Shown piece after piece: positions 888 to 24,996 of a DNA stretch of 64,000 bases (position 1 is the stretch's first letter; each line of letters opens with the position of its first letter). Origin of the DNA: an uncultured Actinomycetes bacterium (lineage in GTDB: Bacteria > Actinomycetota > UBA4738 > HRBIN12); contig CAVXJC010000006.1 in NCBI GenBank assembly GCA_963762075.1, positions 503,943-567,942 on the forward strand, read 5' to 3'. The translations under genes were made by a program, and so were the position numbers. The notes beneath the pieces are model-generated. The model searched no databases. It was given only the letters and a program-made list of their open reading frames with translations, and was not told where the DNA came from.

Positions 888-3800
888 TCATGCGCCGGGT
901 TCGGATACCTCGAGATCGGCGAAGTTCGCCGACGTCTTGCCGAACTCCCACCATCCGCGCACCCGAGGCTTGACGACCGCGAGGCTGCGCCCGTACACCA
1001 TCGGGATCACGACGACGCGATCGGCGACCGCCATCCGATCGGCATCGTGGAACAACGCCAGCCTTCCTCGGTCGCTCCGCTCCTGCCGTGCCCGCTCGAT
1101 CAACTCGTCGAACGGCGGATGGTCGAACCCTCCTTCGTTGGTCCGGCTCTGCGAATGGAACAACAGCCGCAGGAAGTACTCGGGATCGGCGTAGCCGGGC
1201 AGCCATCCGGTGAAGTAGACCGGCGCGTGCTCGCGCGGTGGTCGCATCGTCGCGGTCTCTTCCAGCGACCACGTGTGCCTCTCGATCGCAACGCCAAGGG
1301 CCGAGCGCCACGACTCGATCACCGGTTCCAGGATGGGGAGATCGTCGTCGAGGAACGCGACGGGGATCGGCCCCTCGACGCTCGATCGCGCGAGGCACGC
1401 GCGTGCCAACTCGGGATCGAAGCGCAGGGCGATGTCGGGTGTGTGCCCCTGCAACGCAGGGGGCACGATTCCGCCCGTGGCCACGACCATGTTCGCGGGC
1501 ATCGCAGCGGCGAGGACATCGCGATCGATCGCATGGGCGAGCGCCCGCCGAAGGTCGAGATCCGATCCGGTCTCGCTCGTGTGATCGAAGGCCAGGTATC
1601 CCGACCATGCCGCCGGGCCGATCGACGCATCGGGCACGTCGCGCGACATCAGATCGGCCAGGCGCGGGGTGTAGCGAGCTGCGATGACGTCGATCTCGTC
1701 TCGTTCGTAGCCCCCGAGCGCCTCTCCGATCCTGGCTCGTGTGTAGCCGACCGACGCGACGTTGCCCACACGACCCCCGTTGTCACCCGTCCGGCGCTCG
1801 AGGACGAGCCCGTCCGAGGACCGCCGAGCGACCCGGAACGCCCCCGAGACGACCTGCTTCCCCGGCTCGGTCCATCCATCGCCGAGAGCCTCGATCGCGT
1901 GCCGGGGCTGCGGTCCACCGTCCGGACGGTTCATCACGCTCATGAAGTACGGCGCCGGCGCTACGAGCCGGAACTCCACCGTCTGGTCGTCGAGGGCCCG
2001 CACACCGATCCGCCGGGGGTCGGCCTCCTCGCCCAGGTAATACTCCTGACCCCGTTCCAACACGAAATAGATCGCCACCGATGATCCCGGTGTCGTCGGA
2101 TCGAGCACGCGCTTCACGCCGAACTCGACATCGTGCGCCGTGAGCGGTGAGCCATCGGACCACGTGAGACCCTGGCGAAGCTTGAAGACGTAGCGCAAGC
2201 CGTCGTCGGAGATCTCCCATCGCTCGGCCAACGACGGCACGATCGTTCGCTCGGGCCACTGCTCGACCAGGCGATCGAACAACTGCATGCAGAGTTGGAT
2301 GTTCGGCCAGGCGATGGCCGAGCGCGGATCTGGGTCGTCCGGCAGGAAGCTCGTGGCGATGTTGAGCGAGGCCGACGGCGTTCGGGCCGGCGGCTCGGCC
2401 GGCGTCCAGCGCTCGAACGCTTGTTGATACGCCTCGTTCGCCTCGGCGAACCGCAGCGAGACATGGAGCGCGAGCGCCAACTTGAATTGGACGAGCGCGA
2501 TCTCTCGGTCTTCGCCTCGGCGATCGAGGAGCGGCAGGAGCTCCCGGTAGTACGCGATCGCCTCGTCGAGAGCGTATTCCTGTCGGGCGCGATCTCCTGC
2601 GATCGTCAGGTAGCGAACCGCCTTGTCACCGTCCTGCGCACCGAGCCAATGGTGTGCCAACAGTCCGGCGACCTCGTCTTCTCGGTCGGCGTGGTGCTGC
2701 TCCAGCCACTCCGCGGCCCTGCCGTGCAGTCGACGTCGATCCCCGGCGACCAGAGTCCGATACGCCGTTTCCTGGATCAGCGCGTGCGTGAAGCGGTACT
2801 CGGGTTCTGGCCATCGACGCCCCTCGCGCACCAGATCGACCCGCATGAGCTCTCCGAGCGCGGCGCGCACGTCACCGCTGGCCACCATCTCCTGCAGCAG
2901 CGACAGGCTGAACGTGCGACCCAATACCGATGCTGCGACGACGGCATCGTGAACCGATGGTTCGAGTCGGTCGAGACGCGCGAGGATCACCTTCTCGACC
3001 GTGGGTGGTACTTGCAGGTCGACCTCGTGATCGAATCGCCAACCCTCCTCGTCGTGAACGAGCGCACCGGCGTCCACCATCGAGCGAACCATCTCTTCCA
3101 GGAAGAAGGGATTGCCTTCGGCCGACTCCAAGATGCGCGGCTCCACGACCGGCGGAAGGGTTGCTCGGCCGACGAGCGCCGCAAGGAGCTCGCGTCCCGC
3201 GACGCCGGACAGAGCATCGAGGCTCACCTCCCGGAACCGATGCGGAAGCGTGCGAGCCACGTCTTCCTTCAACCGCCACGACGGATGATCGCGTTCGGGA
3301 CGAGCCGTGCAGAGCAGCAGCAACGCTTCGTCCTCAGTGTCGCCAACCAGGCGTTCGATCAGCTGCAGTGACGTGGCGTCCGCCCAATGGAGATCCTCGA
3401 GCAAGACGGCCAACGGGCCCTCGGCCGCCAATCCCTGCAGCGTCTGGCGCACCACCTCGAACGTTCGGTACTGCAGCGCCTCCGGCGAGAGCTCACCGAG
3501 CCGAGACGACTCGTCGGCTGTTGGCGCGAGTCCGAGCAGTGCCGAGAGGTACGGGACCATCTCTCCGGATCGAGCCGCGAACAAGCGGTCGATCTGCCGG
3601 CGAAGCGCCACGCGGACCAGCAGGTCGGGTTCGTCGCCTCGTGCCCCCAACCACGATCGCAGCAGGTCACGGAACGGCCAATATTGGAACGACCCTCCGT
3701 AGCTCACGCACCGACCCTCGAGCCAGAGCGACCTGCCGAACGCAGGCGTCGTCGCACCGAAGGCACGACGCAGCTCGTGCACCATGCGGGTCTTGCCGAT

Positions 3801-4598
3801 ACCAGGCTCGCCGGTAACGAACACGATGCCGCCTGTTCCTTCCGCGACCGCCTCGACGGCGTCCTTGGCCTTGGCGAGCTCTCGGTCTCTGCCGACCATG
3901 CGGGGGGATGATCTGGGGTCGGCCGAACCGTGCGGCCGAGCGCCGTCGCCCGTCACCGTGAACGCGGCCACCGGGTCGGCCTTGCCCTTGAGCTCGAACG
4001 TCTGCCCGTCGTCCCACGTGAACCGGTCCGCCACGATCCGTCTGGTCGCTTCGCCCACCAGCACGGAGCCCGGCTGAGCCTTGGACTGGAGCCTCGCGGC
4101 GACGTTCACGGCGTCCCCCATCGCGCTGAATTCGACCCGCTCACCGGCACCGATCGCTCCGGTCACCACCAGCCCGGTATTCACCCCGACGCGCACGTTC
4201 AGCGCGTCGACCGCCCAGGCCTCGGCCACCTCACGTGCGAAGCTCTCGATGTCGTCGACGATGCGCAGACCGGTGCGAACCGCACGCTCAGCGTCGTCTT
4301 CGTGAGCGATCGGCGCGCCGAAGAGCGCCAGCACCCCGTCGCCGGCCAGATCCTTCACGGTGCCGCCGAACGCATCGACGGCAGAGACCATGCGTGCGAC
4401 GGCATCGCCGACGACGAGCTTCAATTCCTCGGGATCGAGACGCTCACCCAGCGCGGTCGACCCCACCAGGTCGGCGAAGAGCGCCGTCACCACCCGTCGT
4501 TCGTCGCGCACCTCCACCGGGTCATCCTGCCCGTCGCAGCCACGAGCGGCAATGCGGACGCGAGGAGTGGCTCTCGATCCGCGCGATCCCGGCATCAC
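888..4598 (-). CDS. Multidomain signalling protein: class III adenylate/guanylate cyclase + AAA ATPase (P-loop GEPGIGKT) + helical/TPR-like region + C-terminal family-5 solute-binding-protein (DppA/OppA-like) domain
   Basis: Cyclase motifs VVTALFADLVGST and GDGVLALFGAP; Walker A GEPGIGKTRMV; the C-terminal ~500 aa resemble SBP_bac_5. Start taken at MPGSRG (4598) to avoid overlap with the downstream TetR; the full ORF runs to 4709. Confidence 0.8.
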   Translation of the reverse strand: MMPGSRGSRATPRVRIAARGCDGQDDPVEVRDERRVVTALFADLVGSTALGERLDPEELKLVVGDAVARMVSAVDAFGGTVKDLAGDGVLALFGAPIAHEDDAERAVRTGLRIVDDIESFAREVAEAWAVDALNVRVGVNTGLVVTGAIGAGERVEFSAMGDAVNVAARLQSKAQPGSVLVGEATRRIVADRFTWDDGQTFELKGKADPVAAFTVTGDGARPHGSADPRSSPRMVGRDRELAKAKDAVEAVAEGTGGIVFVTGEPGIGKTRMVHELRRAFGATTPAFGRSLWLEGRCVSYGGSFQYWPFRDLLRSWLGARGDEPDLLVRVALRRQIDRLFAARSGEMVPYLSALLGLAPTADESSRLGELSPEALQYRTFEVVRQTLQGLAAEGPLAVLLEDLHWADATSLQLIERLVGDTEDEALLLLCTARPERDHPSWRLKEDVARTLPHRFREVSLDALSGVAGRELLAALVGRATLPPVVEPRILESAEGNPFFLEEMVRSMVDAGALVHDEEGWRFDHEVDLQVPPTVEKVILARLDRLEPSVHDAVVAASVLGRTFSLSLLQEMVASGDVRAALGELMRVDLVREGRRWPEPEYRFTHALIQETAYRTLVAGDRRRLHGRAAEWLEQHHADREDEVAGLLAHHWLGAQDGDKAVRYLTIAGDRARQEYALDEAIAYYRELLPLLDRRGEDREIALVQFKLALALHVSLRFAEANEAYQQAFERWTPAEPPARTPSASLNIATSFLPDDPDPRSAIAWPNIQLCMQLFDRLVEQWPERTIVPSLAERWEISDDGLRYVFKLRQGLTWSDGSPLTAHDVEFGVKRVLDPTTPGSSVAIYFVLERGQEYYLGEEADPRRIGVRALDDQTVEFRLVAPAPYFMSVMNRPDGGPQPRHAIEALGDGWTEPGKQVVSGAFRVARRSSDGLVLERRTGDNGGRVGNVASVGYTRARIGEALGGYERDEIDVIAARYTPRLADLMSRDVPDASIGPAAWSGYLAFDHTSETGSDLDLRRALAHAIDRDVLAAAMPANMVVATGGIVPPALQGHTPDIALRFDPELARACLARSSVEGPIPVAFLDDDLPILEPVIESWRSALGVAIERHTWSLEETATMRPPREHAPVYFTGWLPGYADPEYFLRLLFHSQSRTNEGGFDHPPFDELIERARQERSDRGRLALFHDADRMAVADRVVVIPMVYGRSLAVVKPRVRGWWEFGKTSANFADLEVSEPGA

Positions 4599-4662: not shown

Positions 4663-5271
4663 TCACTCGGCAGGACGCAGCGCCGCCCGAACGAACAGCA
4701 GCACCTCACGCTCGCGGCGACGGAGCGACGCCCGGCCGCTGTCCGCTCCGACCACGGCGCTCAACACGCTCGCTTCGGTGAGCGAGCCGACGACTGCCGT
4801 GTAGAGCGTGAACAGCAGCATGGCGGGGTCCTGCTTGCGGATCTCGCCGCTATCCATGCCGGCCTGCAAGAACTCGATCGCGCGGCGGCGGAGCGGATCG
4901 AGCACGCCGGCGAACCGGTCGAATGCGGCGGGCCCGAGTCGGGCGGCTTCGCGTACGAACATCGGGAACTCGGGCCATTCCGCCGCGAGCCCGAAGACCC
5001 CGTGGATCACGGCCTCGGCGCGATCCCAATAAGTCTCGGCGCCCTCGAGTGCGGCGGCGAGCTCCGAGCCGAGCCGTTCCCCTGCCGCCTGCAGGCACGC
5101 CTCGAGCAAGGCTTCCTTGTTCGGGAAGTAGTAGAGCAGCGTCTGCTTGCGCACTCCGACCGCGGTGGCGATGCTCTCGATGCTCGCGCCCTTGTATCCG
5201 TCGCGACCGAACTGGTGGATCGCCTCGGCGACGATCGTGGTGCGCCGTTGCTCGCCGCCCGTGCGAGGCAT
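4663..5271 (-). CDS. TetR family transcriptional regulator
   Basis: N-terminal HTH IVAEAIHQFGRDGYKGASIESIATAVGVRKQTLLYYFPNKEAL, typical of TetR. Confidence 0.85.
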   Translation of the reverse strand: MPRTGGEQRRTTIVAEAIHQFGRDGYKGASIESIATAVGVRKQTLLYYFPNKEALLEACLQAAGERLGSELAAALEGAETYWDRAEAVIHGVFGLAAEWPEFPMFVREAARLGPAAFDRFAGVLDPLRRRAIEFLQAGMDSGEIRKQDPAMLLFTLYTAVVGSLTEASVLSAVVGADSGRASLRRREREVLLFVRAALRPAE

Positions 5272-5274
5272 GCG

Positions 5275-6183
5275 CTAATCCCAGGTCTTCCTCGTACCAC
5301 GGCGCTCGATCGGACGCGAGCCTTCCCAGCGTTTGCGCCACTCGGGGCCGCTCGGCCCGTACGGGGGCGGGGTCTCACCACGCTCTGCGCGCTGCAACGA
5401 TTCCCACCATGTCGTGCGGTCCTCGTCGAGGAGCTCCGCCACCGCCTGGGTCATGCGAGCGGTGAACGCCTGATGAGTCTCGCCCTCGGCGGGGAACAGC
5501 GGCGCGCCGATCCGCACCCGCACCGGGGGACGGCCTGCCCGCGGCCACCAACTGCCCTTGGGCATCGCCTGGTACGCCCCGCGGATGCCCACCGGCACCG
5601 CGCCGACACCCGCCTCGATGCAGAGCCGCGCGGTGCCATGACGGAACCGCTTCGTGTGGCCGTCGGGCGATCGGGTGCCCTCCGGGAACACCACGAGGCT
5701 CCAACCATCGTCGAGGAGCTCGCGAGCCTTCGTGACCGCGTGCCGCCCACCGCGCGACCGGTCGATCGGGAACGCTCCGTAGGCGAGCGCAGTGAACGAT
5801 GCTCGCCACCACACGTCGAAGAAATAGTCCCGTGCGGCGCCCACAGCCGTCTTCTCCTGCCATCGTTCGGGCAGGGCCGTCAGGATGATCGTCGCGTCGA
5901 GGTGGCTCGAGTGGTTCGAGTAGAAGATCACACCGCCCTCGATCGCCGTGAGGTGCTCGAGGCCGTAGACGCGCAACGCGACCTGGCTGCGCAGCAGCGG
6001 GCCGAGGCCGGCGTTCAAGATGACGAGCCGCGCTGCTGTGCCCGCACCCGAACGGGCCCAGTCGGTCGGGAACACCGCGTCCTCGCGAGGCGGCGTGTGC
6101 GGCTCGGCGCTACGGGGCACCATGGGGCGGCGACCCCATCGGAACCCCTCCGACATCGTCTTCAGCTCGTCGCGCACGCCCAT
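5275..6183 (-). CDS. 1-acyl-sn-glycerol-3-phosphate (lysophospholipid) acyltransferase, PlsC family
   Basis: HX4D motif NHSSHLD and FPEGTRS motif; start may be the internal M at 6156. Confidence 0.8.
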   Translation of the reverse strand: MGVRDELKTMSEGFRWGRRPMVPRSAEPHTPPREDAVFPTDWARSGAGTAARLVILNAGLGPLLRSQVALRVYGLEHLTAIEGGVIFYSNHSSHLDATIILTALPERWQEKTAVGAARDYFFDVWWRASFTALAYGAFPIDRSRGGRHAVTKARELLDDGWSLVVFPEGTRSPDGHTKRFRHGTARLCIEAGVGAVPVGIRGAYQAMPKGSWWPRAGRPPVRVRIGAPLFPAEGETHQAFTARMTQAVAELLDEDRTTWWESLQRAERGETPPPYGPSGPEWRKRWEGSRPIERRGTRKTWD

Positions 6184-6196
6184 CGCTCAGGTCTCC

Positions 6197-7786
6197 TCAG
6201 TGCACGTCGGCGATCATCACGGGCGGCGCGTGGAAGTAGGTGATCTCGGGCGAAGAGCCGACCGTGTCCTTGGCCATCTCGAGCGCGTCTCGCATCGAGT
6301 CGGCGCGCCGGTAGCCGAGTCGCGCCACGCTCGACGGGTTCCCACCGACGAAGATCACATCGCCCGCGTGATCGCGTCCGTGTGCGCCCCAGTACCACAT
6401 GTAGAACGGATGCACGCCGTGGTACGCGTGGCTCGTGCGGTACAGGTGCACGTACCAGGGGTCGGTGGCGTAGCGTTCCTCGAACTCCTTCTCGATCGTC
6501 TTCGGATCGGTGCTCTCGGCCAGCACTTCCTCGAAGAAGTCGATGTAGCTCGGGTGATGGATCGAGTGGAACTCCCACGGCACCGGGTGATGCAGGATGA
6601 TCACGCCACTCTGCTTCACGAGCGGCTTGTTGCGATACATGTTGAACAGGTACCCGAGCCCGAGGCAGTGCACGAGGATCGGGTTCAGGATGGAGTTCAC
6701 GTTGTACGGCCCGAGGTAGGGCACGCCCATGATCAGCACATCGGCCTGCCCCTGCACCTCCACGAGCTGCTGGCGATGCAGGTTCGTCAGGGTGCGTTGG
6801 TGCACCGCCTCGACCTCACCCGCATTCACGCCGGTCAGCTTGTAGGGAGCCTCGATACGCCGGAAGAACTCACGTCGTACTCGGGGCGGTGCCATGTCGT
6901 TGGCCTTCTTCGCCGCGATCATCAGTGCCTGATCGCTCGCCCCCCACTCCCATTCCCGCTTGTTCAGGAAGCCGAGATTCGACGGGAACGTCTCCGAGTT
7001 GACGGTCGTCTCGATCTGGAAGATCTTGACGCCCGCATCACGCAGTACCCTGCCCATGCGATTCACCGAATCGTTGATCGCGCTGTGGCCTTCTCGCGGA
7101 TCCATATACGACTTCGAGTGCATCATCGTGTTCACGTTGTGGTGGTGCTTGAGGCTCCGGTATCCCGCGAGCCCGACCGCGACCGACTTGTGACCGCCGT
7201 CCATCGCGACCAGGTTGATGTTCACGTAGACGATCAGATCACTCTCGGCGGCGCGCTTGGAGATCTCGACCAGCTCGTCGTCGTCGGTCCTACCGATCTC
7301 GACCAGGCCCTGCGGATCTTCGGCGTCGAAGTTCTTCAGGTGTTCCGGGTAGAACGAGCGGTACACGCGCTCGCCGACCGCTCGCCGGATCTCCTCGGAG
7401 GTCATGCGCCGGTGGAGCGCGGTCGCGACGATCAGCTCGAGGTCGTCGACACCGGCGCGGGCGGCGAGTTCGATCACGTGCTCGAGGATCGGTTGGCGCA
7501 CGTCGGGCGTGCGCATCGGCGGCAGCGGGATCGAGATGTCGTCGATCGCGATCGTGAGCTTCATGCCACCGAACATCAGCTCAGGAAGCGGCTTGGAGTC
7601 GCCGACGGGGTTCAACAGCGCGTGACGGACCGCGGCCGGTACGTCGCGGATACCGGGGAGCGGGTCGGGCGGATACACGACGCGGGTGCCGAGGGGGAAC
7701 TTCTGCATGCGGTAGCCCTCGCCCTGATGCACGAGCAGCGGAGGCGTTCGCTCGTCAACCTGCAACACGAATCCCGGTCTGGGCAT
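6197..7786 (-). CDS. LarA-like (DUF2088 / lactate-racemase-domain) protein, extended (529 aa)
   Basis: N-terminal fold similar to LarA; a candidate Lys/His cluster SLKHHHNVNTMMHSKSY; no larB, larC or larE nearby. Confidence 0.55.
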   Translation of the reverse strand: MPRPGFVLQVDERTPPLLVHQGEGYRMQKFPLGTRVVYPPDPLPGIRDVPAAVRHALLNPVGDSKPLPELMFGGMKLTIAIDDISIPLPPMRTPDVRQPILEHVIELAARAGVDDLELIVATALHRRMTSEEIRRAVGERVYRSFYPEHLKNFDAEDPQGLVEIGRTDDDELVEISKRAAESDLIVYVNINLVAMDGGHKSVAVGLAGYRSLKHHHNVNTMMHSKSYMDPREGHSAINDSVNRMGRVLRDAGVKIFQIETTVNSETFPSNLGFLNKREWEWGASDQALMIAAKKANDMAPPRVRREFFRRIEAPYKLTGVNAGEVEAVHQRTLTNLHRQQLVEVQGQADVLIMGVPYLGPYNVNSILNPILVHCLGLGYLFNMYRNKPLVKQSGVIILHHPVPWEFHSIHHPSYIDFFEEVLAESTDPKTIEKEFEERYATDPWYVHLYRTSHAYHGVHPFYMWYWGAHGRDHAGDVIFVGGNPSSVARLGYRRADSMRDALEMAKDTVGSSPEITYFHAPPVMIADVH

Positions 7787-7799
7787 CTGTCGTCGTCTC

Positions 7800-9038
7800 C
7801 TAGGTCACGGGTTGGTGAGTCGTCGAGTGTTCCTGCGGGGCGAAGGCGACCTTGAACGTGCCGAGGCGCCCGGCAGACATGGCGTGGTCGATCGCGTCAC
7901 GCCAACGGGCGAGCGGATACGTCGCGCCGACCATCGGGGCCAGCATCGGCCCGATCTGGTGCGCCAGCTCGAGCGCGAGCGCGAACGAGTGGCGCCTGCC
8001 GTCATCGGTCTGCTCCATGGCGGTGGTGTAGGCGCCGACGAGCTCGAGCTCACGGAACCACAGCGGCGTGAGGTCGGCGCCGCCCGACGGGATGCCGCTC
8101 ACCACCACTCGGCCTCCCGCCTTCGTGGTTCGAAGAGCCATGTCGAGCGCGCGCTTCGTTCCTGTGCACTCGAACACCACGTCGGCACCGCCGAGCAAGA
8201 AGTCCTGACCGCGCTCGGGGGAAAGCTTGACGGCATGCCCCGCGCGGCGAACGGCCTTCAACGCGTGTTCAGGGCGCACGACCTCGTCGGCACCGGCCAT
8301 CTTCGCCGCCGCGCGCTGCGCCGAGTGCTTGGCCGCCACGATCACGCGGCCCGGCTGCGCGAATCGTCGGAGCGCAACCTGGGTCAGCAACCCGACCGTG
8401 CCCGAGCCGATCACGAGCACGTCGGCGCCTTCGGGCACACGTGCACGGAAGACCGAGTGGATGGCCGTCGCGAGGGGCTCGATCAGCACCGCGGCGTGAT
8501 CGTCGATGCCGTCGGGCACCGCCCAGAGCTGCGAACGATGCGCGAGCAACATGCGGCTCCATCCGCCTCCCGTGCTCGAGCAGAACCCTGTCTGCAAACC
8601 CGCCTTCAGCGAGCCGACCGACACCCGGTCGCAGCGTCCGTACTCACCCACGGCGCAGTGCTCGCAGAGCTCGGCCTGTTCCCGCGCCGCACAGCCCAGC
8701 ACCGATGAGAGCGTCACTCGCTGGCCTGCTTTGTGATCGCCGCAGTCGTCGAGCAACTCCCCGACGACCTCGTGGCCCGGCACGAACGGCATCGACACGA
8801 GCGGGGAGAAGTAGAAGGAGGACTCTCCCGCGATCGTCGAGAGGTCGCTGCCGCAGATGCCCGCGAGCGTGGGCTTCAGCCGGGCCCAGCCGACGCGCGA
8901 TGGCTCGGGGTCGGCCTGAGTAACCAGTCGCAGTGGCGTCAACGGCCCGCCCGCCACGAGGCCGGGCACCTTCCTGCCCGCGACCCGGGCGCCCACGTAC
9001 CGCGGCATCGAGCGGAAGTACTCGAGCGCGAGCGCCAT
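7800..9038 (-). CDS. Zinc-dependent medium-chain alcohol dehydrogenase (threonine/sorbitol-DH-like)
   Basis: GICGSDL and PGHEVVGEL zinc-site motifs, Rossmann VIGSGTVG; start uncertain (possibly MPRYVG at 9005). Confidence 0.8.
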   Translation of the reverse strand: MALALEYFRSMPRYVGARVAGRKVPGLVAGGPLTPLRLVTQADPEPSRVGWARLKPTLAGICGSDLSTIAGESSFYFSPLVSMPFVPGHEVVGELLDDCGDHKAGQRVTLSSVLGCAAREQAELCEHCAVGEYGRCDRVSVGSLKAGLQTGFCSSTGGGWSRMLLAHRSQLWAVPDGIDDHAAVLIEPLATAIHSVFRARVPEGADVLVIGSGTVGLLTQVALRRFAQPGRVIVAAKHSAQRAAAKMAGADEVVRPEHALKAVRRAGHAVKLSPERGQDFLLGGADVVFECTGTKRALDMALRTTKAGGRVVVSGIPSGGADLTPLWFRELELVGAYTTAMEQTDDGRRHSFALALELAHQIGPMLAPMVGATYPLARWRDAIDHAMSAGRLGTFKVAFAPQEHSTTHQPVT

Positions 9039-9054
9039 CAGCCCGCCAGTCCGT

Positions 9055-11355
9055 TCACGCGCGCACCGCCGGTTTGGGGAAGCGCACCCGGGGCATACCC
9101 TTGGTCATCTGCCATTCCTCGATCGGCCAGCGGCGGCGACGCGCGTACCGGTAGAGCGACGAGTCGGGTGAGACCGCGACCGGGTTGCCCACCGCTCGGA
9201 GCAGCGGAAGATCGGAGTATGAGTCCGCATATGCGTAGGAATGACGCAGGTCGACCCCTCCGAGCGTTGCGTACCGGCGGAGCCATGCCGCGCGCGCCTC
9301 GCCCACGAGCGGCGGCGCCGACATGAACCCGGTGAAGCGCCCGTCGCGCTTCTCGAGCTCGGCGCCGATCACCACATCGAACAGCGGCGAGAGCGGGCGC
9401 ACGAACGGCTCGGCGGCGGCGGTGATCAAGATCGTCAGATGGCCGGCGGCGCGATGCTCTCGGATACGGCGGATCGCCGCCGCGCTCGCTTTCTGCAGCA
9501 TGAACTCGGCCACGTGACTCGTCACGAGTCGGTCGATGCCCTCGACGCTCGCACCCTCGAACCGCCGGAAGAAGGTACGCAGGAAGTCGCCGCGGTCGCG
9601 CCGATCGATCTGCAGGTATCCAGGGATACGCCCGAAGACGCTCGCGAGCTCGCGCGGCCATTCCTCGGGTGTCAGGTCGGCCATGCGCGCCCACACGTAG
9701 CTCTCCACCACGTTCGACGTGATGATCGTGCCTTCCATGTCGAAGAGGGCGAGCACGGGCTCGTCACGTTCGCGGATCGTCACACTCGCGCCGCGGCCGT
9801 CCCGACGAGAGAGCTCACGCAGCGACTGGGTGACCGCGGGAGAGTGCACATCCTTCATGTAGTGCTTCCAGTCGATCGCCGCGGCATCGAAGGGGAACGT
9901 TTCCGCATCACCGGACGAGAGCGACTCGAACAGCGCAAGCGTTCGGTCGTCGGTGTAGACGACCTCCGCCTCGGTGTACATGCCGTACAGATCGCTATAG
10001 CGCTTCACGAAGTCGATGCGCGCCTTGTCACGATCGACGCGACGAACGGCGTCGCGCATCGACTTCGATTTCGGCATGTGGGTCACGACCTGCTCGGCGA
10101 TATCGGTGAGCCGCTCGGCCCGGCGCAGCATGCGCTCGACGGTGAGGTTGCCGGGGAAATCCCACTCGGGCACCTTGTGCTCCCCACGACCCCGTTCGGG
10201 AAGAGGGTGCTCCTCGAAGTATTCGCGGATCCACTCGTACAACTCGAAGAAGCGCAGCGGGTTCCGGGAGCCCGAGCTCACGTTGTAGTGCGCGGCCTCA
10301 CCCGGGGCAGGCGGGTGCGCGGCGATCGCGAGCAACGCGTTCACCACGAAGTCCACCGGGATGATGTCGATGATGCCTTCGGGGATCCCCGGGAACTCCG
10401 GGATCTGCCCCAGCCCGTAGGCGCGGATGATCGGGTCGGCCATCTTGAATCCGTCGATCCACCCGGGGAACGGATGCGAGTACGCCGACTCGATGATCGA
10501 CGGCCGCACGATCGAGAGCGGGAGATTCGCCTCGGCCGCGAGCTCCTCGACCGCCCGTTCGCCCATCGCCTTCGTGAAGGTGTAGACGTCGGGCCATCCG
10601 AGCGAGCGTGCCCTGGTGCGCCCGTACTCGACCAGCCGCTTGGAGACCCACTTCAGACGACGATCCTCCGCGTCGTCGGCGACGGTCGTCGGCCCCGCTC
10701 GCGAGTGCTCGTCGCGGGCGAGACCCATGAACGCCGAGAGCATCTCGGGCTTGCGGCTGGCGGCTTCCACGTCGCTGCGGGCAGACATGGCGAGCTCGAG
10801 CTCGAGCCGGTAGTCGACTCGGTGCTCCAGGGGCCCCTCGGGAATCACGCCCTTCTGCACTCCGGCGACGTAAGCGGTCGAGACGTGCACCAGCGCGGGG
10901 GTCGATCCACCGCCGATCACCCCTCGATAGAGGTTCATCGCGCCCTGAAGGTTCGTTATGAACGCTTCGTCGATGGGCGGGTCGAAGCTCACCGTCGCGG
11001 CCGAGTGCATCGCGACGTCGATGCCCGCGGGAACCTCTGGCTGCCCACGACCGAAATCGCCGTCGACCACATCGACCCGATCGTCGAGCATCCGTCTGAG
11101 CCCGTCCTCACCGACGCGCTCCCGCAACGTGTCGAACGCCGGCTTCCGGAACAGGTACTCGACTCGTTCGCGGCTCGTCGCTCCCGTCTGCGATCGCACG
11201 AGCAGCACGATGCGAGTCTCTTCGAAGTCCGCCAGCAGCCGTTCGAACACCACCTGCGCGAGGAAGCCGGTCACCCCGGTCAACAACATCGTCTTGCCCG
11301 AGAGCGCTTCGACGATCGAAGGCGTCGCGGAGGCGCGTGCCTTGCCCTCTACCAT
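9055..11355 (-). CDS. Fatty acyl-CoA reductase (male-sterility/NAD_binding_4 domain) fused to a C-terminal HAD-IB phosphatase domain
   Basis: N-term LLTGVTGFLAQ plus YTFTK (Yx3K); C-term DMEGTIITSNV...ADSYSDLPLL, HAD-IB-like. Confidence 0.75.
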   Translation of the reverse strand: MVEGKARASATPSIVEALSGKTMLLTGVTGFLAQVVFERLLADFEETRIVLLVRSQTGATSRERVEYLFRKPAFDTLRERVGEDGLRRMLDDRVDVVDGDFGRGQPEVPAGIDVAMHSAATVSFDPPIDEAFITNLQGAMNLYRGVIGGGSTPALVHVSTAYVAGVQKGVIPEGPLEHRVDYRLELELAMSARSDVEAASRKPEMLSAFMGLARDEHSRAGPTTVADDAEDRRLKWVSKRLVEYGRTRARSLGWPDVYTFTKAMGERAVEELAAEANLPLSIVRPSIIESAYSHPFPGWIDGFKMADPIIRAYGLGQIPEFPGIPEGIIDIIPVDFVVNALLAIAAHPPAPGEAAHYNVSSGSRNPLRFFELYEWIREYFEEHPLPERGRGEHKVPEWDFPGNLTVERMLRRAERLTDIAEQVVTHMPKSKSMRDAVRRVDRDKARIDFVKRYSDLYGMYTEAEVVYTDDRTLALFESLSSGDAETFPFDAAAIDWKHYMKDVHSPAVTQSLRELSRRDGRGASVTIRERDEPVLALFDMEGTIITSNVVESYVWARMADLTPEEWPRELASVFGRIPGYLQIDRRDRGDFLRTFFRRFEGASVEGIDRLVTSHVAEFMLQKASAAAIRRIREHRAAGHLTILITAAAEPFVRPLSPLFDVVIGAELEKRDGRFTGFMSAPPLVGEARAAWLRRYATLGGVDLRHSYAYADSYSDLPLLRAVGNPVAVSPDSSLYRYARRRRWPIEEWQMTKGMPRVRFPKPAVRA

Positions 11356-11443
11356 GCGGCAGATTATGCCTCTCTACCGGTCGGTAGACAACCGGGCGAG
11401 GAGGCGATCCCTCGCGAGGAACCGGCTGCGCCCGCCCTGCGCC

Positions 11444-14400
11444 CTAGCGGAGGCCGACGTTGACGAAGTGGGTCGTGCCGTCATCCAGCAAGACGCCGAT
11501 CCGCCAGAATCGATTCGCCTGCGTTTTCGCGGTCCCCCAGTTGTAGATGTACTGCTGGTCCACGGAATCCCAGCGATAGGTGCCCCCGCTTGTGGGTGAG
11601 CTCGTGTAGACCGACTCGTCGATCGGAGCGGTCAACGCGCCACCGGGCGCGGGCGCGAGCCAGACAGGAAGCATGTTGGTCTGCACCACCCTGCCGTCTG
11701 CGGTCCGCAGTCGGAACTTCACCGGTACGGTCGATCCCGCCTTGAAGATGCTGGCGCCGGTTCCAACCTGATGCGCCGTGTCGTTGATCGGCTGCAGGAA
11801 CCCGCCGAACGCGTACACGACCCGGTACGACCCCGTGACCGACGTCGCGTTCCCGGCGAGGTCGGTCGCGGTGGCGGTGAAGGAGTACGTCCCGACACCG
11901 TTGGCGAGCCCGCCCGAGATGCTCATCCGGCAGGAACCGTCGAGTCCCGAGCCGGCGTCCGCCGCCGAGCACGTTCCCGAGGGGACCGCACCGAGCGTGT
12001 AGATGCCTCCGTTCGCGACGCCTCCGATCGTGATCGATGGATGTGTCACGTCGATGTTCAGGCCCTCGACCGCTGCCCTACGCTCGTTGCCGGCCGCGTC
12101 GACGGCGACGCCGCTCACCGACTGCCCGGCGCCCTCGCCCGAGAGCACCGCATCGGCGGGGCAGGTCGCGATGCCCGAGAGCCCGTCGTGACAGCTGAAG
12201 CGCACGGTGACCGCCGAGGCGTACCACCCGTGGGCGTTCGGCGTCGTGGTCGGCGCCCCCGAGATCGACGGAGCGGTCTCGTCCAGCTTCACCTCGACCG
12301 AGTCGGTCCCTCGGTTGCCGGCCATGTCGGAGGCCTCACCGTGCACGGTCGTCCCCCCGGTTTCTTCGGTGATCGTGACGTCGGCGGTGACCGTGTCATC
12401 GTCCACACCCGAGCCGTCCTCGTCGTCGACCGCGTCGAACCGAACCGTGACGTCCGATCGGTTCCAGCCGGCGGCGTTCGGCGACGGCGTGAGAACGTGC
12501 GACACGGCCGGAGCGATCGTGTCGTAGTCGATCTGCACGGCGCCGGGCGTCTCCTCGTTGCCGGCGGCGTCGACGGCATAGAACCGCACCGTCGCGTCGC
12601 CCGACCCGCTCAGCGGCACCGCAACACGCGCCGATGCGCCGGGTTCGGTGTGCCACGCGCCCGCACCGATGCGGTAGCGGATCTCCTGGACGCCCGACAG
12701 CCCGACCTGGTCGTCAGCCGAGAGCTCGATCGTGGCGTCGTCACGGCAGTAGCCGTTCGCACCGGTGCACGACAGCGTCGCCGTCGTCGACGGTGCCCGG
12801 CTGTCGATGTCGATGCCGTGCAGGGTCGTGCTGGCCACATTGTCGGCGCGGTCGGTCGCCGCGCCCGTCACGAACTGGTCGGCGCCGTCCTCGGAGAGCA
12901 CGGTGTCGGCGGCGCACTCCTGCGTACCGGAGAGCAGGTCCTCACACGTGAAGTGCACGCGGACGGCGCCGTTGAACCACCCTGCGCCGTTCGGGGAGCG
13001 TGGCGCGAGGTCATCGTCCACCGTGGTGGCCGCGATCGTGGGGGCGGTTCGGTCGATCATGATGCCGGAGTAGGCGCCTGTACCCTCGTTGCCCGCCTTG
13101 TCGAACACCGAGACGGGTCCAGCGACCAGGCCGACTCCCTCGCCGGTGACGGTGATGTCGTCCGGAAGGGTGGAAGGGTCGACGCCGGAGAGGCCATCCT
13201 CAGCCGCCCATCCGACCGTGACGTCGCTCCGGTACCAGCCGAATGCGTTCGGCTGCGACGAAGGCGTGCCCGACAGGGTCGGGACTGTCAGGTCGATGTT
13301 GATGCCAGCGACCGAGACCGAGGTCGTGTTACCGGCGTTGTCGAGCGCCATACCGGTGACGCTCTGTTCCTCGCCCTCGTTCACCACCTGCGCGGGATCG
13401 CTGCAGGCGGCGACGCCAGACTCGGGATCCTCACACAGAAAGTCGACCACCACCGTGCCGTTGTTCCAACCGAAGCCGTTGGCGGCGGGCTGACGGTTGG
13501 CGGCGATCGTGGGCGGGTTGCCGTCGATCTTCACGGTGATCGTGTGACCGGGAGCAGTCTCGTCTTCCACGTTGCCGGCGAGGTCCTCGCTCCAGAACGT
13601 GATGGTGTGCTCCCCGGTCAAGGTGTGCTGGAACGGTCCGGTGTATTGCCGGGCGGAGCCTCCGTCGACGCGGTATGACGTGGTTGCGATCCCGGACAGG
13701 TCGGGTCCGGTGGCGAGGGTGACCTCCACGCCGCCCGCGTGCCACCCGCTCGCGAGCGGATCGGGCAGGATCGCCGTGGTGCTCGGAGCGGTCCGGTCGA
13801 TCTTGATACCCGACACCGAGCGGTCGCGTGAGTTCCCGGCCCGGTCGGTCACGTGCGCGGTCGCGGAGAGGTCGTCGCCCTCGCCGGTCACGACGCTGTC
13901 CTGCGGGCACGTGCCCTCGATGCCGGAGAGCGCGTCGAAGCACGACCATCCAACGATCACGTCGCCGCGGTACCAGCCGTGCTCGTTCGGATCCGTCGCG
14001 GTCTCGCCGGTGAGCGACGGCTTCGTCTCGTCGATATCGATGTCACCGACCACCGATCGGCTCTCGTTGCCGGCACCATCAGTGGCCAGGCCGGTCACCG
14101 ACTGGTCCTCGCCTTCGCCCAGCGTCTCGTCACCGGTGCAGTCCGCGACACCCGAGAGCAGGTCGGTGCACGTGAACGTCACCGTGACGGGAGCGTCGTA
14201 CCAGCCCGAGCCATTCGGGTCGCGGTCCCGGGCACCCGAGATCGTCGGGTCGGTCATGTCGATCGACACGCTCGCCTCGTCGGTCGCTTCGTTGCCGGCG
14301 GTGTCCACGGCCGAGCCGGTCACGAGCTGCCCCGCCCCCTCGCCTGACACGACCTGCGGGCCGGTGCAGCTCGCGATACCCGAGAGGGTGTCGGTGCAGA

Positions 14401-15844
14401 TGAATGTGACGGTGGCCTCGGCGTCGTGCCAGTCGTTGGCGTTTGCGTCGGGTGACACCGCGTGCGAGATCGAGGGGGCAGTGCGATCGATGCTGACCGC
14501 GACGGCCCTGTGCGCTTCCTCGTTGCCCGCCTCGTCCATGCTCCAGAACTCGAGGACGTGCTCTCCCTCTTCGTCGATCGACACCGAGGCGCCGGCCTGC
14601 GCCGGACCTGCGTCGACGGCGTAGTAGGTGGCGTCCACACCCGACAGCCCATCGCTCGCCGAGAGCTCGACCGTGACGCCGACGTTGCTCCAGCCCGACG
14701 GCGCAGACGCCGTCGTCATTGGCGCGGTCGTGTCGATCCTCACACCGGGCGACAGCGCCGCCGTGGTGTTGCCAGCGCGATCGGCCACCGACGCCGACGC
14801 GGTGAGTCCGGTGCCGTCGCCGGCGATCGTTCCGTCGGCCGGGCACCCTCCCTCGATGCCGGACAGCGTGTCGCTGCAAGACCAGTCGATCGTGACGGGG
14901 CCGTCGTACCAGCCGTTGTGGTTCGGCGCGGTCGTGGGCGACCCGGCCAGCTGAGGGGAGGTCGTGTCGATATTGATGCCACCCACCGTCGTGCTCGCGA
15001 GGTTCCCGGCGGTGTCGGTCGCGGTGCCTGTGGCGGAGAGACCGGACCCGTCGCCCGAGAGCACCGTGGAACCCGGGCAGCTCGCGATGCCCGACAGCGC
15101 GTCGGAGCAGGAGAAGCTCACCGTGACCGGACCGGCGTTCCACCCGTTGGCGTTGGCGCCGGGGCTTCGCGATCCGGAGATCAGGGGATCGATCTTGTCG
15201 AGCTTGACGGTGACCGACCCGGACGCCGAGTTGCCCAGGCGATCGGTCGCAGTCGAGGTGCGAGCGATCCCCGCGGTGTCCACGGTGACGGAGTCGCTCG
15301 AGGGGGTCGGGCCACTTGCGATTCCCGATCCGGCGTCGATGGCCGCCCAGGTGATGCCCACGTTCGTGCGGTTCCACCCATTGGCGTTCGGAAGCGGTGT
15401 CAGCGTGCCGCTCACCATCGGGCCGGAGTTATCGAGCACGTACGAAGCTTGTCTCGAGCCCGGCTGGCCGGTGCAGTTGTTCGCGTTGAAGTCCGGGCGC
15501 GCCGTCGCGGTGATCGTCCGTACTCCATCACCGGAGCCGGCCGAGAACGCGAACGTCCACGATGACTTCGCCGCGGCCGATCGCTGCTCCGCGGTGTGGG
15601 CACCCGTGATCTGCACGCACCTCGTGTCGCTCGAGGTCGTGAGGTTCAAGGTGAGCGACCCTCCGTTCCGGGCGTACAGCGTGTCGGCAACCACCACGGT
15701 GCCCGTTCCCCCGGCAAACGCCGCGGCCGAGACCGACGCGGCGAAGGCCGGAGGGGACTGCAGGATCGCTGCCGTGACGAGCGCTGCGGCGGTGAGCGCG
15801 CGAACGCTCCGAGCTCGGTGTCGTCCGACGTTCCGCGATCCCAT
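11444..15844 (-). CDS. Large secreted surface protein with about 13 tandem Ig-like/HYR-like ~93-aa repeats
   Basis: Signal peptide MGSRNVGRHRARSVRALTAAALVTAAILQSPPAFAAS; repeats NxNGWxxxxVTVxFxCxDxLSGIxxCxxxxVxxGEGxxQSVTGxAxDxAGN...IDxTxP. Start chosen at 15844; the ORF extends to 16030. Confidence 0.75.
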   Translation of the reverse strand: MGSRNVGRHRARSVRALTAAALVTAAILQSPPAFAASVSAAAFAGGTGTVVVADTLYARNGGSLTLNLTTSSDTRCVQITGAHTAEQRSAAAKSSWTFAFSAGSGDGVRTITATARPDFNANNCTGQPGSRQASYVLDNSGPMVSGTLTPLPNANGWNRTNVGITWAAIDAGSGIASGPTPSSDSVTVDTAGIARTSTATDRLGNSASGSVTVKLDKIDPLISGSRSPGANANGWNAGPVTVSFSCSDALSGIASCPGSTVLSGDGSGLSATGTATDTAGNLASTTVGGINIDTTSPQLAGSPTTAPNHNGWYDGPVTIDWSCSDTLSGIEGGCPADGTIAGDGTGLTASASVADRAGNTTAALSPGVRIDTTAPMTTASAPSGWSNVGVTVELSASDGLSGVDATYYAVDAGPAQAGASVSIDEEGEHVLEFWSMDEAGNEEAHRAVAVSIDRTAPSISHAVSPDANANDWHDAEATVTFICTDTLSGIASCTGPQVVSGEGAGQLVTGSAVDTAGNEATDEASVSIDMTDPTISGARDRDPNGSGWYDAPVTVTFTCTDLLSGVADCTGDETLGEGEDQSVTGLATDGAGNESRSVVGDIDIDETKPSLTGETATDPNEHGWYRGDVIVGWSCFDALSGIEGTCPQDSVVTGEGDDLSATAHVTDRAGNSRDRSVSGIKIDRTAPSTTAILPDPLASGWHAGGVEVTLATGPDLSGIATTSYRVDGGSARQYTGPFQHTLTGEHTITFWSEDLAGNVEDETAPGHTITVKIDGNPPTIAANRQPAANGFGWNNGTVVVDFLCEDPESGVAACSDPAQVVNEGEEQSVTGMALDNAGNTTSVSVAGINIDLTVPTLSGTPSSQPNAFGWYRSDVTVGWAAEDGLSGVDPSTLPDDITVTGEGVGLVAGPVSVFDKAGNEGTGAYSGIMIDRTAPTIAATTVDDDLAPRSPNGAGWFNGAVRVHFTCEDLLSGTQECAADTVLSEDGADQFVTGAATDRADNVASTTLHGIDIDSRAPSTTATLSCTGANGYCRDDATIELSADDQVGLSGVQEIRYRIGAGAWHTEPGASARVAVPLSGSGDATVRFYAVDAAGNEETPGAVQIDYDTIAPAVSHVLTPSPNAAGWNRSDVTVRFDAVDDEDGSGVDDDTVTADVTITEETGGTTVHGEASDMAGNRGTDSVEVKLDETAPSISGAPTTTPNAHGWYASAVTVRFSCHDGLSGIATCPADAVLSGEGAGQSVSGVAVDAAGNERRAAVEGLNIDVTHPSITIGGVANGGIYTLGAVPSGTCSAADAGSGLDGSCRMSISGGLANGVGTYSFTATATDLAGNATSVTGSYRVVYAFGGFLQPINDTAHQVGTGASIFKAGSTVPVKFRLRTADGRVVQTNMLPVWLAPAPGGALTAPIDESVYTSSPTSGGTYRWDSVDQQYIYNWGTAKTQANRFWRIGVLLDDGTTHFVNVGLR

Positions 15845-16073
15845 CAGCCTCAACAACTCCTCGTATGGCGAGCCCCCCAACCGCCGTTCGGCGTCACCCA
15901 TGCGGCCCGTCGCCGCGATGACCCAGGATGCACTCCACGCACCCGACCCGGGAACCGCTGAAGGTCGCAACGTTGCGCAGGGGGTGCGGGCCCGACAGCC
16001 TGGGCCGAAGGTCCGGGGATCGAAGGGCAAAGGGCGGAGGGAGCTCCATCACCGCCACTAGACTTCTCAGCCC

Positions 16074-18100: not shown

Positions 18101-19130
18101 TCAGGACGTGAACAGATGCTCGGCGATCTGGACCGCGTCGAGCGCCGCTCCTTTTCGCAGGTTGTCGGCGCAACTGAACAGCATGAGCGCGTCGTCGCGT
18201 CCCGGCACCTGCCTGACACGCCCCACGAGCGCCTCGTCGCCACCGGCGGCATCGAGAGGCGACGGGAACACCCCGTTCACGGGATCGTCCATGAGCCGAA
18301 CGCCCGGCGCCGATGACAACGCCTCGCGGGCTTCTGCGACCGTGATCGGTCGGGAGAACTCGGCGAGCATCGAGACGGCGTGACCTGTGACGACGGGCAC
18401 CCGAACGGAGGTCGCGACCACGCGCATACCGGGTGCGCTCAGGATCTTGCGCGGCTCGGCCATCATCTTCGATTCCTCGCCGGTGAAGCCGTCGGCCTCG
18501 AACTCCCCGATCTTCGCGACCACGTTGAAGGCGATCGGCTTCGCGAAAACCTCGCCCTGTGGCAGAGCGTCGCGTCGGGATGGGCGAGCGACTCGATGTC
18601 GCCTCCGAGCTTGTCGACCTGCTCGGCGAGCTCACGCGTTCCCTTCATGCCCGCGCCGCTCACCGCCTGATAGCTCGAGAGCACGAGCGAGACACACCCC
18701 GCCGCGCGATGCAGCGGACCCAGCGCGAGCACGGCGGTGATCGCGGTGCAGTTCGGCACCGCGATGATGCCCGGGTGCGGCCAGCCCTCGAGCGCCTCCG
18801 GGTTCACCTCGGGCACCGAGAGCGGCACGTCGGGGTCCATGCGGAAGGCACTCGAGTTGTCGATGCAGACCGTCCGTTCGACGCGATGTCGGGCAGGAAC
18901 GCTTTCGATGTCGACGCGCCGGCCGAGACGAAAGCCACGTCGGCCCCGCGTGCAGCTTCGATGGAGAGCTCACGCACCTCGTGCTCTTCCCCCGCGAACT
19001 CGACGAGGCGACCTGCGCTACGGGTACTGGCCAGCAGCACGAGCTCGTCGACGGGGAAGCGTCGCTCCTCGAGGATGCGGAGCATCTCCCGGCCGACCGC
19101 CCCGGTGGCTCCGATGACCGCGATCTTCAT
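18101..19130 (-). pseudogene. asd: Aspartate-semialdehyde dehydrogenase, interrupted by two -1 frameshifts
   Basis: Three consecutive minus-strand ORFs (19130-18804, 18840-18463, 18523-18101) in frames 2, 0 and 1 together reconstruct Asd (MKIAVIGATGAVG...[15 protein letters not shown]...[14 protein letters not shown]...). Confidence 0.75.
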
Positions 19131-19167
19131 GGTCGTTCAACGCTACCAGCGAGCACGGACCGCCCGG

Positions 19168-21120: not shown

Positions 21121-21160
21121 CCGCGTCGCTCCTCGCCGTCGTGCGATCCCGAGTCCGAGT

Positions 21161-24871: not shown

Positions 24872-24996
24872 ATGGAACCACCACGGGCCGCGCACGCGTC
24901 ACAACCGTGTCACACGCCGGTACCCCCGCGGCATGTCCTGGTCGTACTGCTCCACGTATCGCCCGGCCCCGCGGGACGGACACGAGAGGTGAGGCC

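Follow-up and report, generated by a model that had tools for sequence, protein, structure and literature searches.

We analyzed a stretch of 64,000 nt from an uncultured Actinomycetes bacterium (assembly GCA_963762075.1, contig CAVXJC010000006.1, positions 503,943 to 567,942; hereafter the window), which has a GC content of ~68% and contains an array of five genes with a predicted role in lipid synthesis. All five genes lie on the minus strand. In the order of transcription they encode a fusion of a fatty acyl-CoA/acyl carrier protein (ACP) reductase (FAR) and a HAD phosphatase (9055-11355, 766 aa), a zinc alcohol dehydrogenase (Zn-ADH; 7800-9038, 412 aa), a LarA-like protein (6197-7786, 529 aa), a PlsC-type acyltransferase (5275-6183, 302 aa) and, as the last gene, a TetR-family regulator (4663-5271, 202 aa). 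The open reading frames (ORFs) are intact, and their GC content at third codon positions (0.86-0.87) is of the coding type. Shine-Dalgarno-like sequences precede the third, fourth, and fifth genes. An identical 529-aa LarA-like protein is encoded on three independent JGI metagenome contigs, where the covered neighboring gene calls are equal in length. A preliminary description, made from the sequence of this DNA, had listed the same five ORFs with the same domain content, and both are confirmed here (domains by Pfam and NCBIfam). It had also mentioned gaps of 3-17 nt or overlaps between the genes. The gaps are indeed small (16, 13, 13, and 3 nt, the last between the PlsC and TetR genes), but there are no overlaps.

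The only sigma-70-like site between positions 4300 and 11700 is located directly upstream of the FAR-HAD gene (11363..11391, minus strand), with a -35 box TTGTCT (11391-11386), a 17-nt spacer and a -10 box CATAAT (11368-11363). The -10 box ends 7 nt before the ATG at 11355, and the mRNA is therefore predicted to be leaderless. A scan for intrinsic terminators gave one weak match within the array, which is below the count in shuffled sequence, leaving no notable internal terminator-like site. Given this single promoter-like site, the tiny gaps, and the terminator scan, the five genes form one operon, which the preliminary description had thought probable.

Two copies of the motif TCTRCC-N4-GGTAGA overlap the promoter region. 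Operator O1 (11373..11388) is a perfect palindrome, TCTACCGACCGGTAGA, positioned between the -35 and -10 boxes, and is a predicted TetR site. Operator O2 (11348..11363, minus strand; TCTGCCGCATGGTAGA) covers the end of the -10 box, the predicted transcription start and the start codon, and is kept in relatives. No match to this motif is expected by chance in the window, and it is found only at O1 and O2. The arrangement TTGTCT...CATAATCTGCCGC[A/G]TGGTAGAG is preserved in related loci (L004-L017 and L026). The core CTACC-N4-GGTAG occurs in 21 out of 87 loci, 20 times immediately upstream of FAR-HAD, and a TetR gene was detected in 19 of these 21 loci. The two remaining loci are L011, where the core lies between FAR-HAD and the dehydrogenase gene (L011:2140-2153) on a contig that stops before any TetR position, and L016, where the core is present and TetR was not detected. 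In locus L067 (Acidimicrobiales; 6393-6448), three tandem operator copies precede FAR-HAD. The window regulator (TetR_N, 1.3e-12 in Pfam) is very likely the local repressor of the operon, as the operator motif and the TetR gene co-occur across loci. The position of this gene varies: it is located downstream on the same strand in the nearer relatives, divergently upstream in Acidimicrobiia and is absent elsewhere.

The FAR domain spans residues ~13-514 of the fusion protein (nt 9814-11319, minus strand), as delineated by Pfam (NAD_binding_4, 1.6e-48, and Sterile) and by its PDB match to the fatty acyl-CoA reductase 7eoz (E 2e-51, residues 13-514). Its GxTGFxG motif, S159, and Y258-x3-K262 are conserved in 71 orthologues. 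The HAD-IB phosphatase domain follows at residues ~535-749 (nt 9109-9753, minus strand; PF12710, 9e-32). It contains all four motifs (D539-M-E-G-T, T645, R688, and D711 with D715), which are also conserved in 71 sequences, with either D or E at the +2 position of motif I. The Zn-ADH is a medium-chain dehydrogenase (MDR; ADH_N and ADH_zinc_N). Its nearest PDB entries are sorbitol, ketose, idonate, threonine and galactitol-1-phosphate dehydrogenases, being of the polyol/secondary-alcohol type, and the ligands of the catalytic zinc (C62, H89, and E187) as well as the four cysteines for the structural zinc are all present. Because of these relatives and the Cys-His-Glu and four-Cys zinc sites, the enzyme suits the reduction of a 2-keto group on a glycerol-phosphate backbone better than the reduction of a fatty aldehyde, and it is predicted to be a 2-keto (alkyl-dihydroxyacetone phosphate, alkyl-DHAP) reductase. 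The PlsC-type protein (Pfam Acyltransferase, 6e-22; PDB match 5kym, PlsC) has the HX4D motif (H91-x4-D96) and FPEGTRS, and is predicted to acylate DHAP, glycerol-3-phosphate (G3P), or 1-alkyl-G3P. It is the only acyltransferase among the five proteins, in which Pfam, NCBIfam, and PDB comparisons found none of the wax ester synthase/diacylglycerol acyltransferase (WS/DGAT) type. AMP-binding and PP-binding domains are likewise absent from all five proteins according to Pfam.

The LarA-like protein contains a Lar_N domain (Pfam, 1.3e-35) and matches the NCBIfam family NF052592 'LarAH14/15/16' over residues 6-528 (878.9 bits against a cutoff of 740). We assign it from its sequence to group 14 of the LarA homologues (LarAH), as an orthologue of the Myxococcus protein ElbC. 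Residues D83, H125, K200, and H216 are invariant in 21 LarA-like sequences from Actinomycetota, Rubrobacter, and Myxococcota. By alignment and a published residue table, all corresponding residues of Lactiplantibacillus plantarum LarA are matched (Asp72, the catalytic His108, the tethering Lys184, and the nickel-binding His200). The second catalytic histidine of LarA (His174) is not present; Asn191 aligns at this position and corresponds to Asn185 of the single-His enzyme. The equivalent of Arg75 was mapped on the window protein itself and is Ile86, within a DDISI motif, whereas the status of Gln295 and Lys298 was taken from the published table for group 14, which lacks His174 and has a gap for Gln295 and an Asn for Lys298 (Desguin et al., 2020, PMC7583248, Table S1). 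An AlphaFold2 model (pLDDT 91, pTM 0.91) was used for fold comparison alone. Foldseek placed LarA-family structures at ranks 1-19, the best being 9q3k (E 7e-30, TM 0.77/0.85). The best structural matches, 9q3k and 9q3j, are single-His LarA-like enzymes with a bound ligand modelled as a phosphorylated sugar.

The window protein shares with the LarA superfamily and these two structures the fold (TM 0.77-0.85 to 9q3k), the Lar_N domain, the lysine that tethers the nickel-pincer nucleotide (NPN), the nickel-binding histidine, the aspartate and one catalytic histidine, and with 9q3k and 9q3j also the asparagine in place of the second one. It differs from them by a length that is ~100 residues greater, an identity of only ~20% and the isoleucine at the Arg75 position. 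In addition, its gene is found in a lipid-synthesis context and not in one of sugar or organic-acid metabolism. It also contains a conserved C-terminal His/Tyr/Trp cluster (H400, H411, H456, H459, Y465, and W466). Desguin et al. (2020, PMC7583248) offered seven substrates (lactate, malate, 2-hydroxyglutarate, phenyllactate, 2-hydroxyisovalerate, 2-hydroxyisocaproate, and gluconate) to a LarAH14 protein from Frankia, 60% identical to that of the window, and found no activity. Groups 14 and 15 are orphans in the nickel-pincer literature, with no activity and an unclear context (PMC7583248). The 'group 16' paralogues Frankia alni FRAAL3757 and Francci3_2278 (PMC7583248, Dataset S2) keep the PlsC and HAD context but have lost the cofactor-tethering lysine. 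They look like degenerate copies of the same cluster type. NCBIfam nevertheless gives all three groups (14, 15, and 16) a common 'hydroxyacid isomerase' name.

An alignment search found relatives of the LarA-like protein in at least 594 species-level genomes, and synteny was scored on the best 80 of these loci, which include Frankia, Micromonospora, Actinoplanes, Actinomadura, Kribbella, Nocardioides, Jiangellaceae, and Acidimicrobiia. Across these 80 loci, identity to the window is 61-93% for the LarA-like protein and 36-92% for the other proteins. A further 80 loci were collected from metagenomes with an alignment of the FAR-HAD fusions, and these form two mutually exclusive classes. The order FAR-HAD, Zn-ADH, LarA-like, PlsC, as well as the strand, is kept in 80/80 genome loci as far as the contigs reach, and the same order is seen in 27/27 class 1 metagenome loci that offer room for it. 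Thus, the four enzyme genes of what had been described as a five-gene set are indeed conserved as a block, with a variable TetR gene. In total, ~100 related loci long enough to show the order have kept it; they span Actinomycetes, Acidimicrobiia, and Rubrobacter, and the arrangement is far beyond chance. Locus L093 still carries the cluster with a 2-kb insertion between FAR-HAD and the dehydrogenase gene (L093:8394-10417). The combination had been presented as a candidate undescribed pathway, but group 14 has already been tabulated with COG0204 (PlsC), COG0560 (HAD) and COG1063 (Zn-ADH) in 88% and COG3320 (thioester reductase) in 50% of the cases, and group 15 with COG0451, COG0560, and COG1022 (Desguin et al., 2020, PMC7583248, Table S1). 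The association itself is therefore not new, and its function is listed there as unknown.

The two metagenome classes differ in the enzymes that accompany FAR-HAD and PlsC. Class 1 loci have a FAR-HAD protein with at least 49% identity, followed wherever there is room by Zn-ADH, LarA-like, and PlsC genes. Class 2 loci (L138-L157, all high-GC metagenome contigs) encode a FAR-HAD fusion with 44-50% identity and a PlsC paralogue with 41-47% identity, and contain neither a LarA-like nor a Zn-ADH gene. They carry instead a classical short-chain dehydrogenase/reductase (SDR) and a protein with FAD_binding_4 and FAD-oxidase_C domains, which is AGPS by its similarity to solved alkyl-DHAP synthases (2uuu, E 5e-117; 4bby, E 8e-85). 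AGPS is present in every class 2 locus with enough upstream sequence. Over all sequences compared, 120 loci have the LarA-like gene, 11 have AGPS and none has both. Moreover, tblastn searches of the window and all 120 LarA-type loci gave no AGPS match, and Pfam detected none among the window proteins scanned. The same pairing exists in Myxococcus xanthus, where MXAN_1676-1674 (AGPS, a FAR-acyltransferase fusion, and an SDR) exists in addition to the elb operon with its LarA-like protein, HAD phosphatase, FAR-containing protein with a terminal acyltransferase and SDR (2022 review).

The window operon thus resembles the AGPS pathway, i.e., the eukaryotic set FAR1, GNPAT, AGPS, and alkyl-DHAP reductase or the bacterial MXAN_1676-1674, in having an alcohol supplier, an acyltransferase, a candidate ether-forming enzyme and a ketoreductase. 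It differs from this pathway in lacking the FAD-linked AGPS and the SDR. These positions are taken by the LarA-like protein and the Zn-ADH, with the nickel-pincer nucleotide instead of FAD as the presumed cofactor. AGPS is the only eukaryote-type ether-lipid enzyme without a counterpart in the window, and the LarA-like protein is the only window enzyme without a counterpart in the AGPS cluster. This swap is the pattern expected of non-orthologous displacement, and it is the main basis on which we propose the LarA-like protein for the ether-forming step and the Zn-ADH as alkyl-DHAP reductase. The AGPS-type loci also contain a conserved protein of ~250-300 aa ahead of FAR-HAD, often with a paralogue after it (L148:6099-6998, plus strand; L153:9286-10044, plus strand; also L138, L139, and L154). 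The protein ahead of FAR-HAD has no Pfam match, and its paralogue is faintly similar to soluble di-iron fatty-acid desaturases and rubrerythrin (E 5e-4, below the cutoff). A role as ferritin-like oxygenase or desaturase with the ether lipid as substrate is conceivable.

The elb operon of M. xanthus links the LarA-like protein to ether lipids. The genes elbA-elbE correspond to MXAN_1531-1527 and elbD to MXAN_1528, and MXAN_1529, a member of LarAH group 15 in the published residue table, is consequently ElbC. The LarA-like component had been said to have no precedent in wax or ether-lipid routes. This no longer holds, since ElbC of the elb operon, described as 'a protein of unknown function' in a 2022 review, is itself a LarA homologue. 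The M. xanthus locus (L084) encodes, in this order, an SDR (ElbA), a HAD phosphatase (PF12710, ElbB), a Lar_N protein (ElbC), ElbD, and a second SDR (ElbE), with ElbD (MXAN_1528) composed of NAD_binding_4, Sterile, AMP-binding, PP-binding, and Acyltransferase domains. The window LarA-like protein is over its full length 47% identical to ElbC (E 1e-175). The other matches are 29% for the FAR domain against the N-terminus of ElbD (E 4e-46), 32% for the HAD domain against ElbB (E 1e-26), and 36% for PlsC against the C-terminal acyltransferase domain of ElbD (E 1e-25). Both systems consist of contiguous co-directional genes for a LarA-like protein, a HAD-IB phosphatase, a FAR, an AGPAT-type acyltransferase and an extra NAD(P) oxidoreductase. 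In the window, however, the FAR is fused to the HAD domain, whereas in elb it is fused to acyl-CoA synthetase, ACP, and acyltransferase domains (ElbD). The window has no acyl-CoA ligase or carrier-protein domain, its acyltransferase is a separate protein, its oxidoreductase is a zinc-dependent MDR where elb has the extended SDRs ElbA and ElbE, and its cluster comes with an attached TetR gene with defined operators. The cluster is, as judged from its genes, a variant architecture of the elb-type ether-lipid system.

Rubrobacter radiotolerans has FAR-HAD, Zn-ADH, and LarA-like genes in the same order as the window, and its LarA-like protein is 52% identical to that of the window. The Rubrobacter cluster differs in having a PlsY gene upstream and neither a PlsC gene downstream nor a TetR gene. 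The PlsY gene (acyl-phosphate:G3P acyltransferase; L086:5841-6452, plus strand) overlaps FAR-HAD by a few bases. With PlsY in place of PlsC, the pathway is tied to glycerol-3-phosphate, and its acyltransferase partner is interchangeable. Sinninghe Damsté and co-workers reportedly noted a putative 1-O-alkyl glycerol phosphate operon in Rubrobacter that resembles elb. According to a paper citing Sinninghe Damsté (2023), Rubrobacter species make abundant mixed ether/ester lipids, and ~46% of the core lipids of the Rubrobacterales are ether-linked. The link between these lipids and the cluster is correlative. The anaerobic PlsA/PlsR and Ger ester-to-ether reductases yield the same product class (bacterial sn-1 alkyl/alkenyl ethers) but are unrelated, being benzoyl-CoA reductase/dehydratase-like and oxygen-sensitive enzymes that act on finished diacyl lipids. 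No PlsA/PlsR or Ger-type reductase is encoded in the window.

The genes for synthesis of the nickel-pincer cofactor accompany part of the clusters. Recurrent flanking families, first annotated as PurE-like and PP-loop proteins, scored above the NCBIfam cutoffs for LarB (247 bits, cutoff 175), LarC (LarC1 195, cutoff 90; LarC2 120, cutoff 50), and LarE (271-278 bits, cutoff 150). In total, 16 loci have larB, larC, and larE next to the LarA-type cluster (11 from genomes, including those of Actinomadura, Micromonospora, Actinoallomurus, and Actinoplanes, and five class 1 metagenome loci), and none of these three genes was found beside AGPS-type loci. The pair larC-larB is usually divergent from larE-FAR-HAD (L030:3623-6357; L035:3430-6298; L070:10888-13758), and in Actinomadura, Micromonospora, and Actinoplanes the lipid operon would accordingly begin with larE.

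We conclude that the five genes probably constitute a TetR-repressed, leaderless operon representing an Actinomycetota version of the elb pathway, which would make 1-O-alkyl-glycerol(-3-phosphate) lipids without AGPS. An ether-lipid product is well supported by the homology to elb, the presence of the cluster in ether-lipid-rich Rubrobacter and the exchange with AGPS and SDR in the sister cluster, and a 1-O-alkylglycerol(-phosphate) lipid is the likely product. The genome comparison suggests that the LarA-like protein, a predicted nickel-pincer-nucleotide enzyme, takes the place of AGPS in ether-bond formation. More specifically, and with some reserve, we suggest that the LarAH14/15 (ElbC) family might be an NPN-dependent alkyl-DHAP (or alkyl-G3P) synthase and as such a non-homologous replacement of AGPS.

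In the route that we propose, with the steps ordered by analogy with the AGPS pathway, the FAR domain would produce a fatty alcohol (or aldehyde) by reducing a long-chain acyl thioester, and the PlsC-like enzyme would make 1-acyl-DHAP (or 1-acyl-G3P) or acylate the sn-2 position later on. The LarA-like enzyme, with its nickel-pincer nucleotide on Lys200/His216 and the single catalytic His125, would then swap the acyl for the alkyl group to give 1-O-alkyl-DHAP, the step equivalent to that of AGPS. Two chemistries can be envisaged, each of which would need just one general base. Either C4 of the pincer pyridinium serves as electrophile for the enolised acyl-DHAP, comparable to the flavin N5 in AGPS, or a hydride is transferred from C2 of the glycerol to a hemiacetal- or oxocarbenium-type intermediate derived from the fatty aldehyde. 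The polyol-type Zn-ADH would reduce the 2-keto group to yield 1-O-alkyl-G3P, sn-2 acylation would be performed by PlsC or a housekeeping acyltransferase, and the HAD-IB domain would remove the phosphate from a lyso- or alkyl-glycerol phosphate. TetR would bind both TCTRCC-N4-GGTAGA operators over the promoter and start codon, to be released presumably by a lipid ligand.

Several observations weigh against this interpretation. The HAD phosphatase, whose step is the least certain of the route and which is present in both the LarA-type and the AGPS-type clusters, fits a pathway toward neutral alkylglycerols better than one toward the ether phospholipids that dominate in Rubrobacter. It is not obvious why the pathway should need both a released keto intermediate, as implied by the separate dehydrogenase, and a hydride-shuttling cofactor. 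Arg75, replaced by Ile86 in the window protein, binds the cofactor phosphate in LarA. The larB, larC, and larE genes are absent from the 64-kb window and from most of the related loci. Some organisms with ElbD homologues have no detectable ether lipids (Pontiella), and the cultured carriers Kribbella, Micromonospora, and Frankia do not count among the known ether-lipid producers. Finally, the literature searched contained neither an elbC mutation nor a lipid assay of ElbC or LarAH14.

A different division of labor, which we regard as rather unlikely, would keep the ether-lipid product and give the LarA-like enzyme only an accessory role. It would perform a hidden-redox or isomerisation step on the glycerol-phosphate backbone, for example the interconversion of acyl- or alkyl-G3P with its 2-keto form or a change of the C2 configuration (G3P versus G1P series), while the ether would arise from the FAR-derived aldehyde by a reductive route, via a hemiacetal or vinyl ether and involving FAR, ADH, or PlsC. 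This would be in line with the known LarA homologues, which all act by hydride transfer at a C-H beside a hydroxyl. The field attributes ether formation to ElbD itself, ElbD gave no detected fatty alcohols in vitro, and the paper citing Sinninghe Damsté (2023) leaves the stereochemistry of the ether lipids in Rubrobacter open. Nevertheless, LarA-like plus MDR and AGPS plus SDR alternate next to the same FAR-HAD and PlsC, for which a one-for-one functional replacement is the simplest reading, with AGPS being the ether-forming enzyme, and the single catalytic histidine speaks against stereo-inversion.

The preliminary description had left the product open as an alkyl/acyl-glycerol, wax ester or ether-like lipid, and the ether lipid is the part that stands. 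A pathway without an ether bond, leading to a fatty alcohol, a wax ester, or another neutral lipid, is very improbable. In such a pathway, the FAR would supply alcohols, the acyltransferase would esterify these or a glycerol backbone, and the ADH would balance alcohol and aldehyde. Actinomycetota store neutral lipids, and a FAR with an acyltransferase represents the minimal logic of wax-ester synthesis, but the acyltransferase is of the PlsC/AGPAT and not of the WS/DGAT type, and the ADH is polyol-type and not of the aldehyde-reductase type. Such a pathway would also leave the LarA-like enzyme, the HAD domain, the adjacent larBCE genes, and the AGPS swap unexplained. Slimmer still are the chances of a racemase or epimerase that acts on a 2-hydroxy acid or hydroxylated head group before its incorporation into a lipid. 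This agrees with the NCBIfam family name 'NPN-dependent hydroxyacid isomerase' and with the activity of all characterised LarA homologues on 2-hydroxy acids. The window protein, however, lacks the second catalytic histidine (Asn191) and has Ile86 for Arg75, Gln295 and Lys298 are not conserved in the group 14 table, the Frankia LarAH14 was inactive on seven 2-hydroxy acids, and no gene for 2-hydroxy-acid synthesis recurs in the neighborhood. These residues and the inactive Frankia enzyme speak against the stereo-inversion of a 2-hydroxy acid or head group suggested earlier. Likewise, a long-chain 1,2-diol or 2-hydroxy-acid lipid was considered as product and dropped in view of the ElbC and AGPS links and the missing racemase residues.

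In the literature searched, neither ElbC nor ether lipids are connected to LarA or the nickel pincer; most subscription journals lie outside it, and an earlier recognition is possible. Within the same scope, an explicit assignment of ElbC to the LarA homologues, the displacement between LarA-like protein and AGPS, and the larBCE adjacency have not been reported. The ether-lipid field uses the multidomain, promiscuous ElbD as genomic marker, and the ether-forming step of the AGPS-independent pathway is unidentified there. Linking both literatures gives the orphan nickel enzyme family a testable substrate class and provides a specific candidate for the missing ether-forming enzyme of the AGPS-independent pathway. 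It also points to an improved marker gene for the prediction of ether-lipid-producing bacteria in soils and sediments, in which non-isoprenoid alkylglycerols serve as biomarkers, and predicts nickel-dependent ether-lipid synthesis in many Actinomycetota. If the LarAH14/15 family does act as such a synthase, its reaction would be the first in the LarA family other than the racemisation or epimerisation of 2-hydroxy acids, and lipid biosynthesis would have its first nickel enzyme. The ether-bond-forming step of the aerobic, AGPS-independent 'ElbD' pathway would then be identified, and soil Actinomycetota would be nickel-dependent ether-lipid producers.

Downstream of the TetR gene, a single gene on the minus strand (888-4598) encodes a protein of 1200-1270 aa that combines class III nucleotide cyclase, AAA_16 STAND ATPase and SBP_bac_5 (family-5 solute-binding protein) domains, with partial similarity to a TOMM kinase/cyclase fusion. 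Its start is ambiguous, being either GTG 4598 (64-nt gap) or GTG 4517 (145-nt gap, the JGI call). The preliminary description had noted this cyclase fusion as following the array. We rejected it as an operon member, as it is present only in the closest relatives (L001 and L004-L006) and is not part of the conserved module. On the other side, the gene of a 1528-aa predicted surface protein (11444-16030, minus strand) ends 88 nt upstream of the operon start codon. The domains of this protein are three of the OmpL47 beta-barrel type and a PxKF domain at the C-terminus, in addition to Big_13 Ig-like repeats.

Further away, the window contains ordinary housekeeping genes, namely recR-dnaX (27322-29730, minus strand), an aspartokinase gene (19872-21824, minus strand), a hemA-hemC-hemD-hemB-hemL run (53958-59317, plus strand) and a nicotinate phosphoribosyltransferase gene (37443-38792, plus strand). 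These surroundings argue for a chromosomal location of the operon rather than one on a mobile island, and PLSDB contains no plasmid-borne copy of the LarA-like gene. The asd gene (aspartate-semialdehyde dehydrogenase; 18101-19140, minus strand), adjoining the intact aspartokinase gene, is split over three frames, with frameshifts near 18560 and 18870. Since asd is normally essential, assembly indel errors are a more likely cause than a pseudogene, and further indels are possible elsewhere in the window. Finally, an ORF of 487 aa within 24121-26772 (plus strand) has an extracytoplasmic function (ECF)-type sigma factor domain (regions 2 and 4) at its C-terminal end and probably a true start later than called. 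A DUF4349 protein encoded downstream of it may be the anti-sigma partner.

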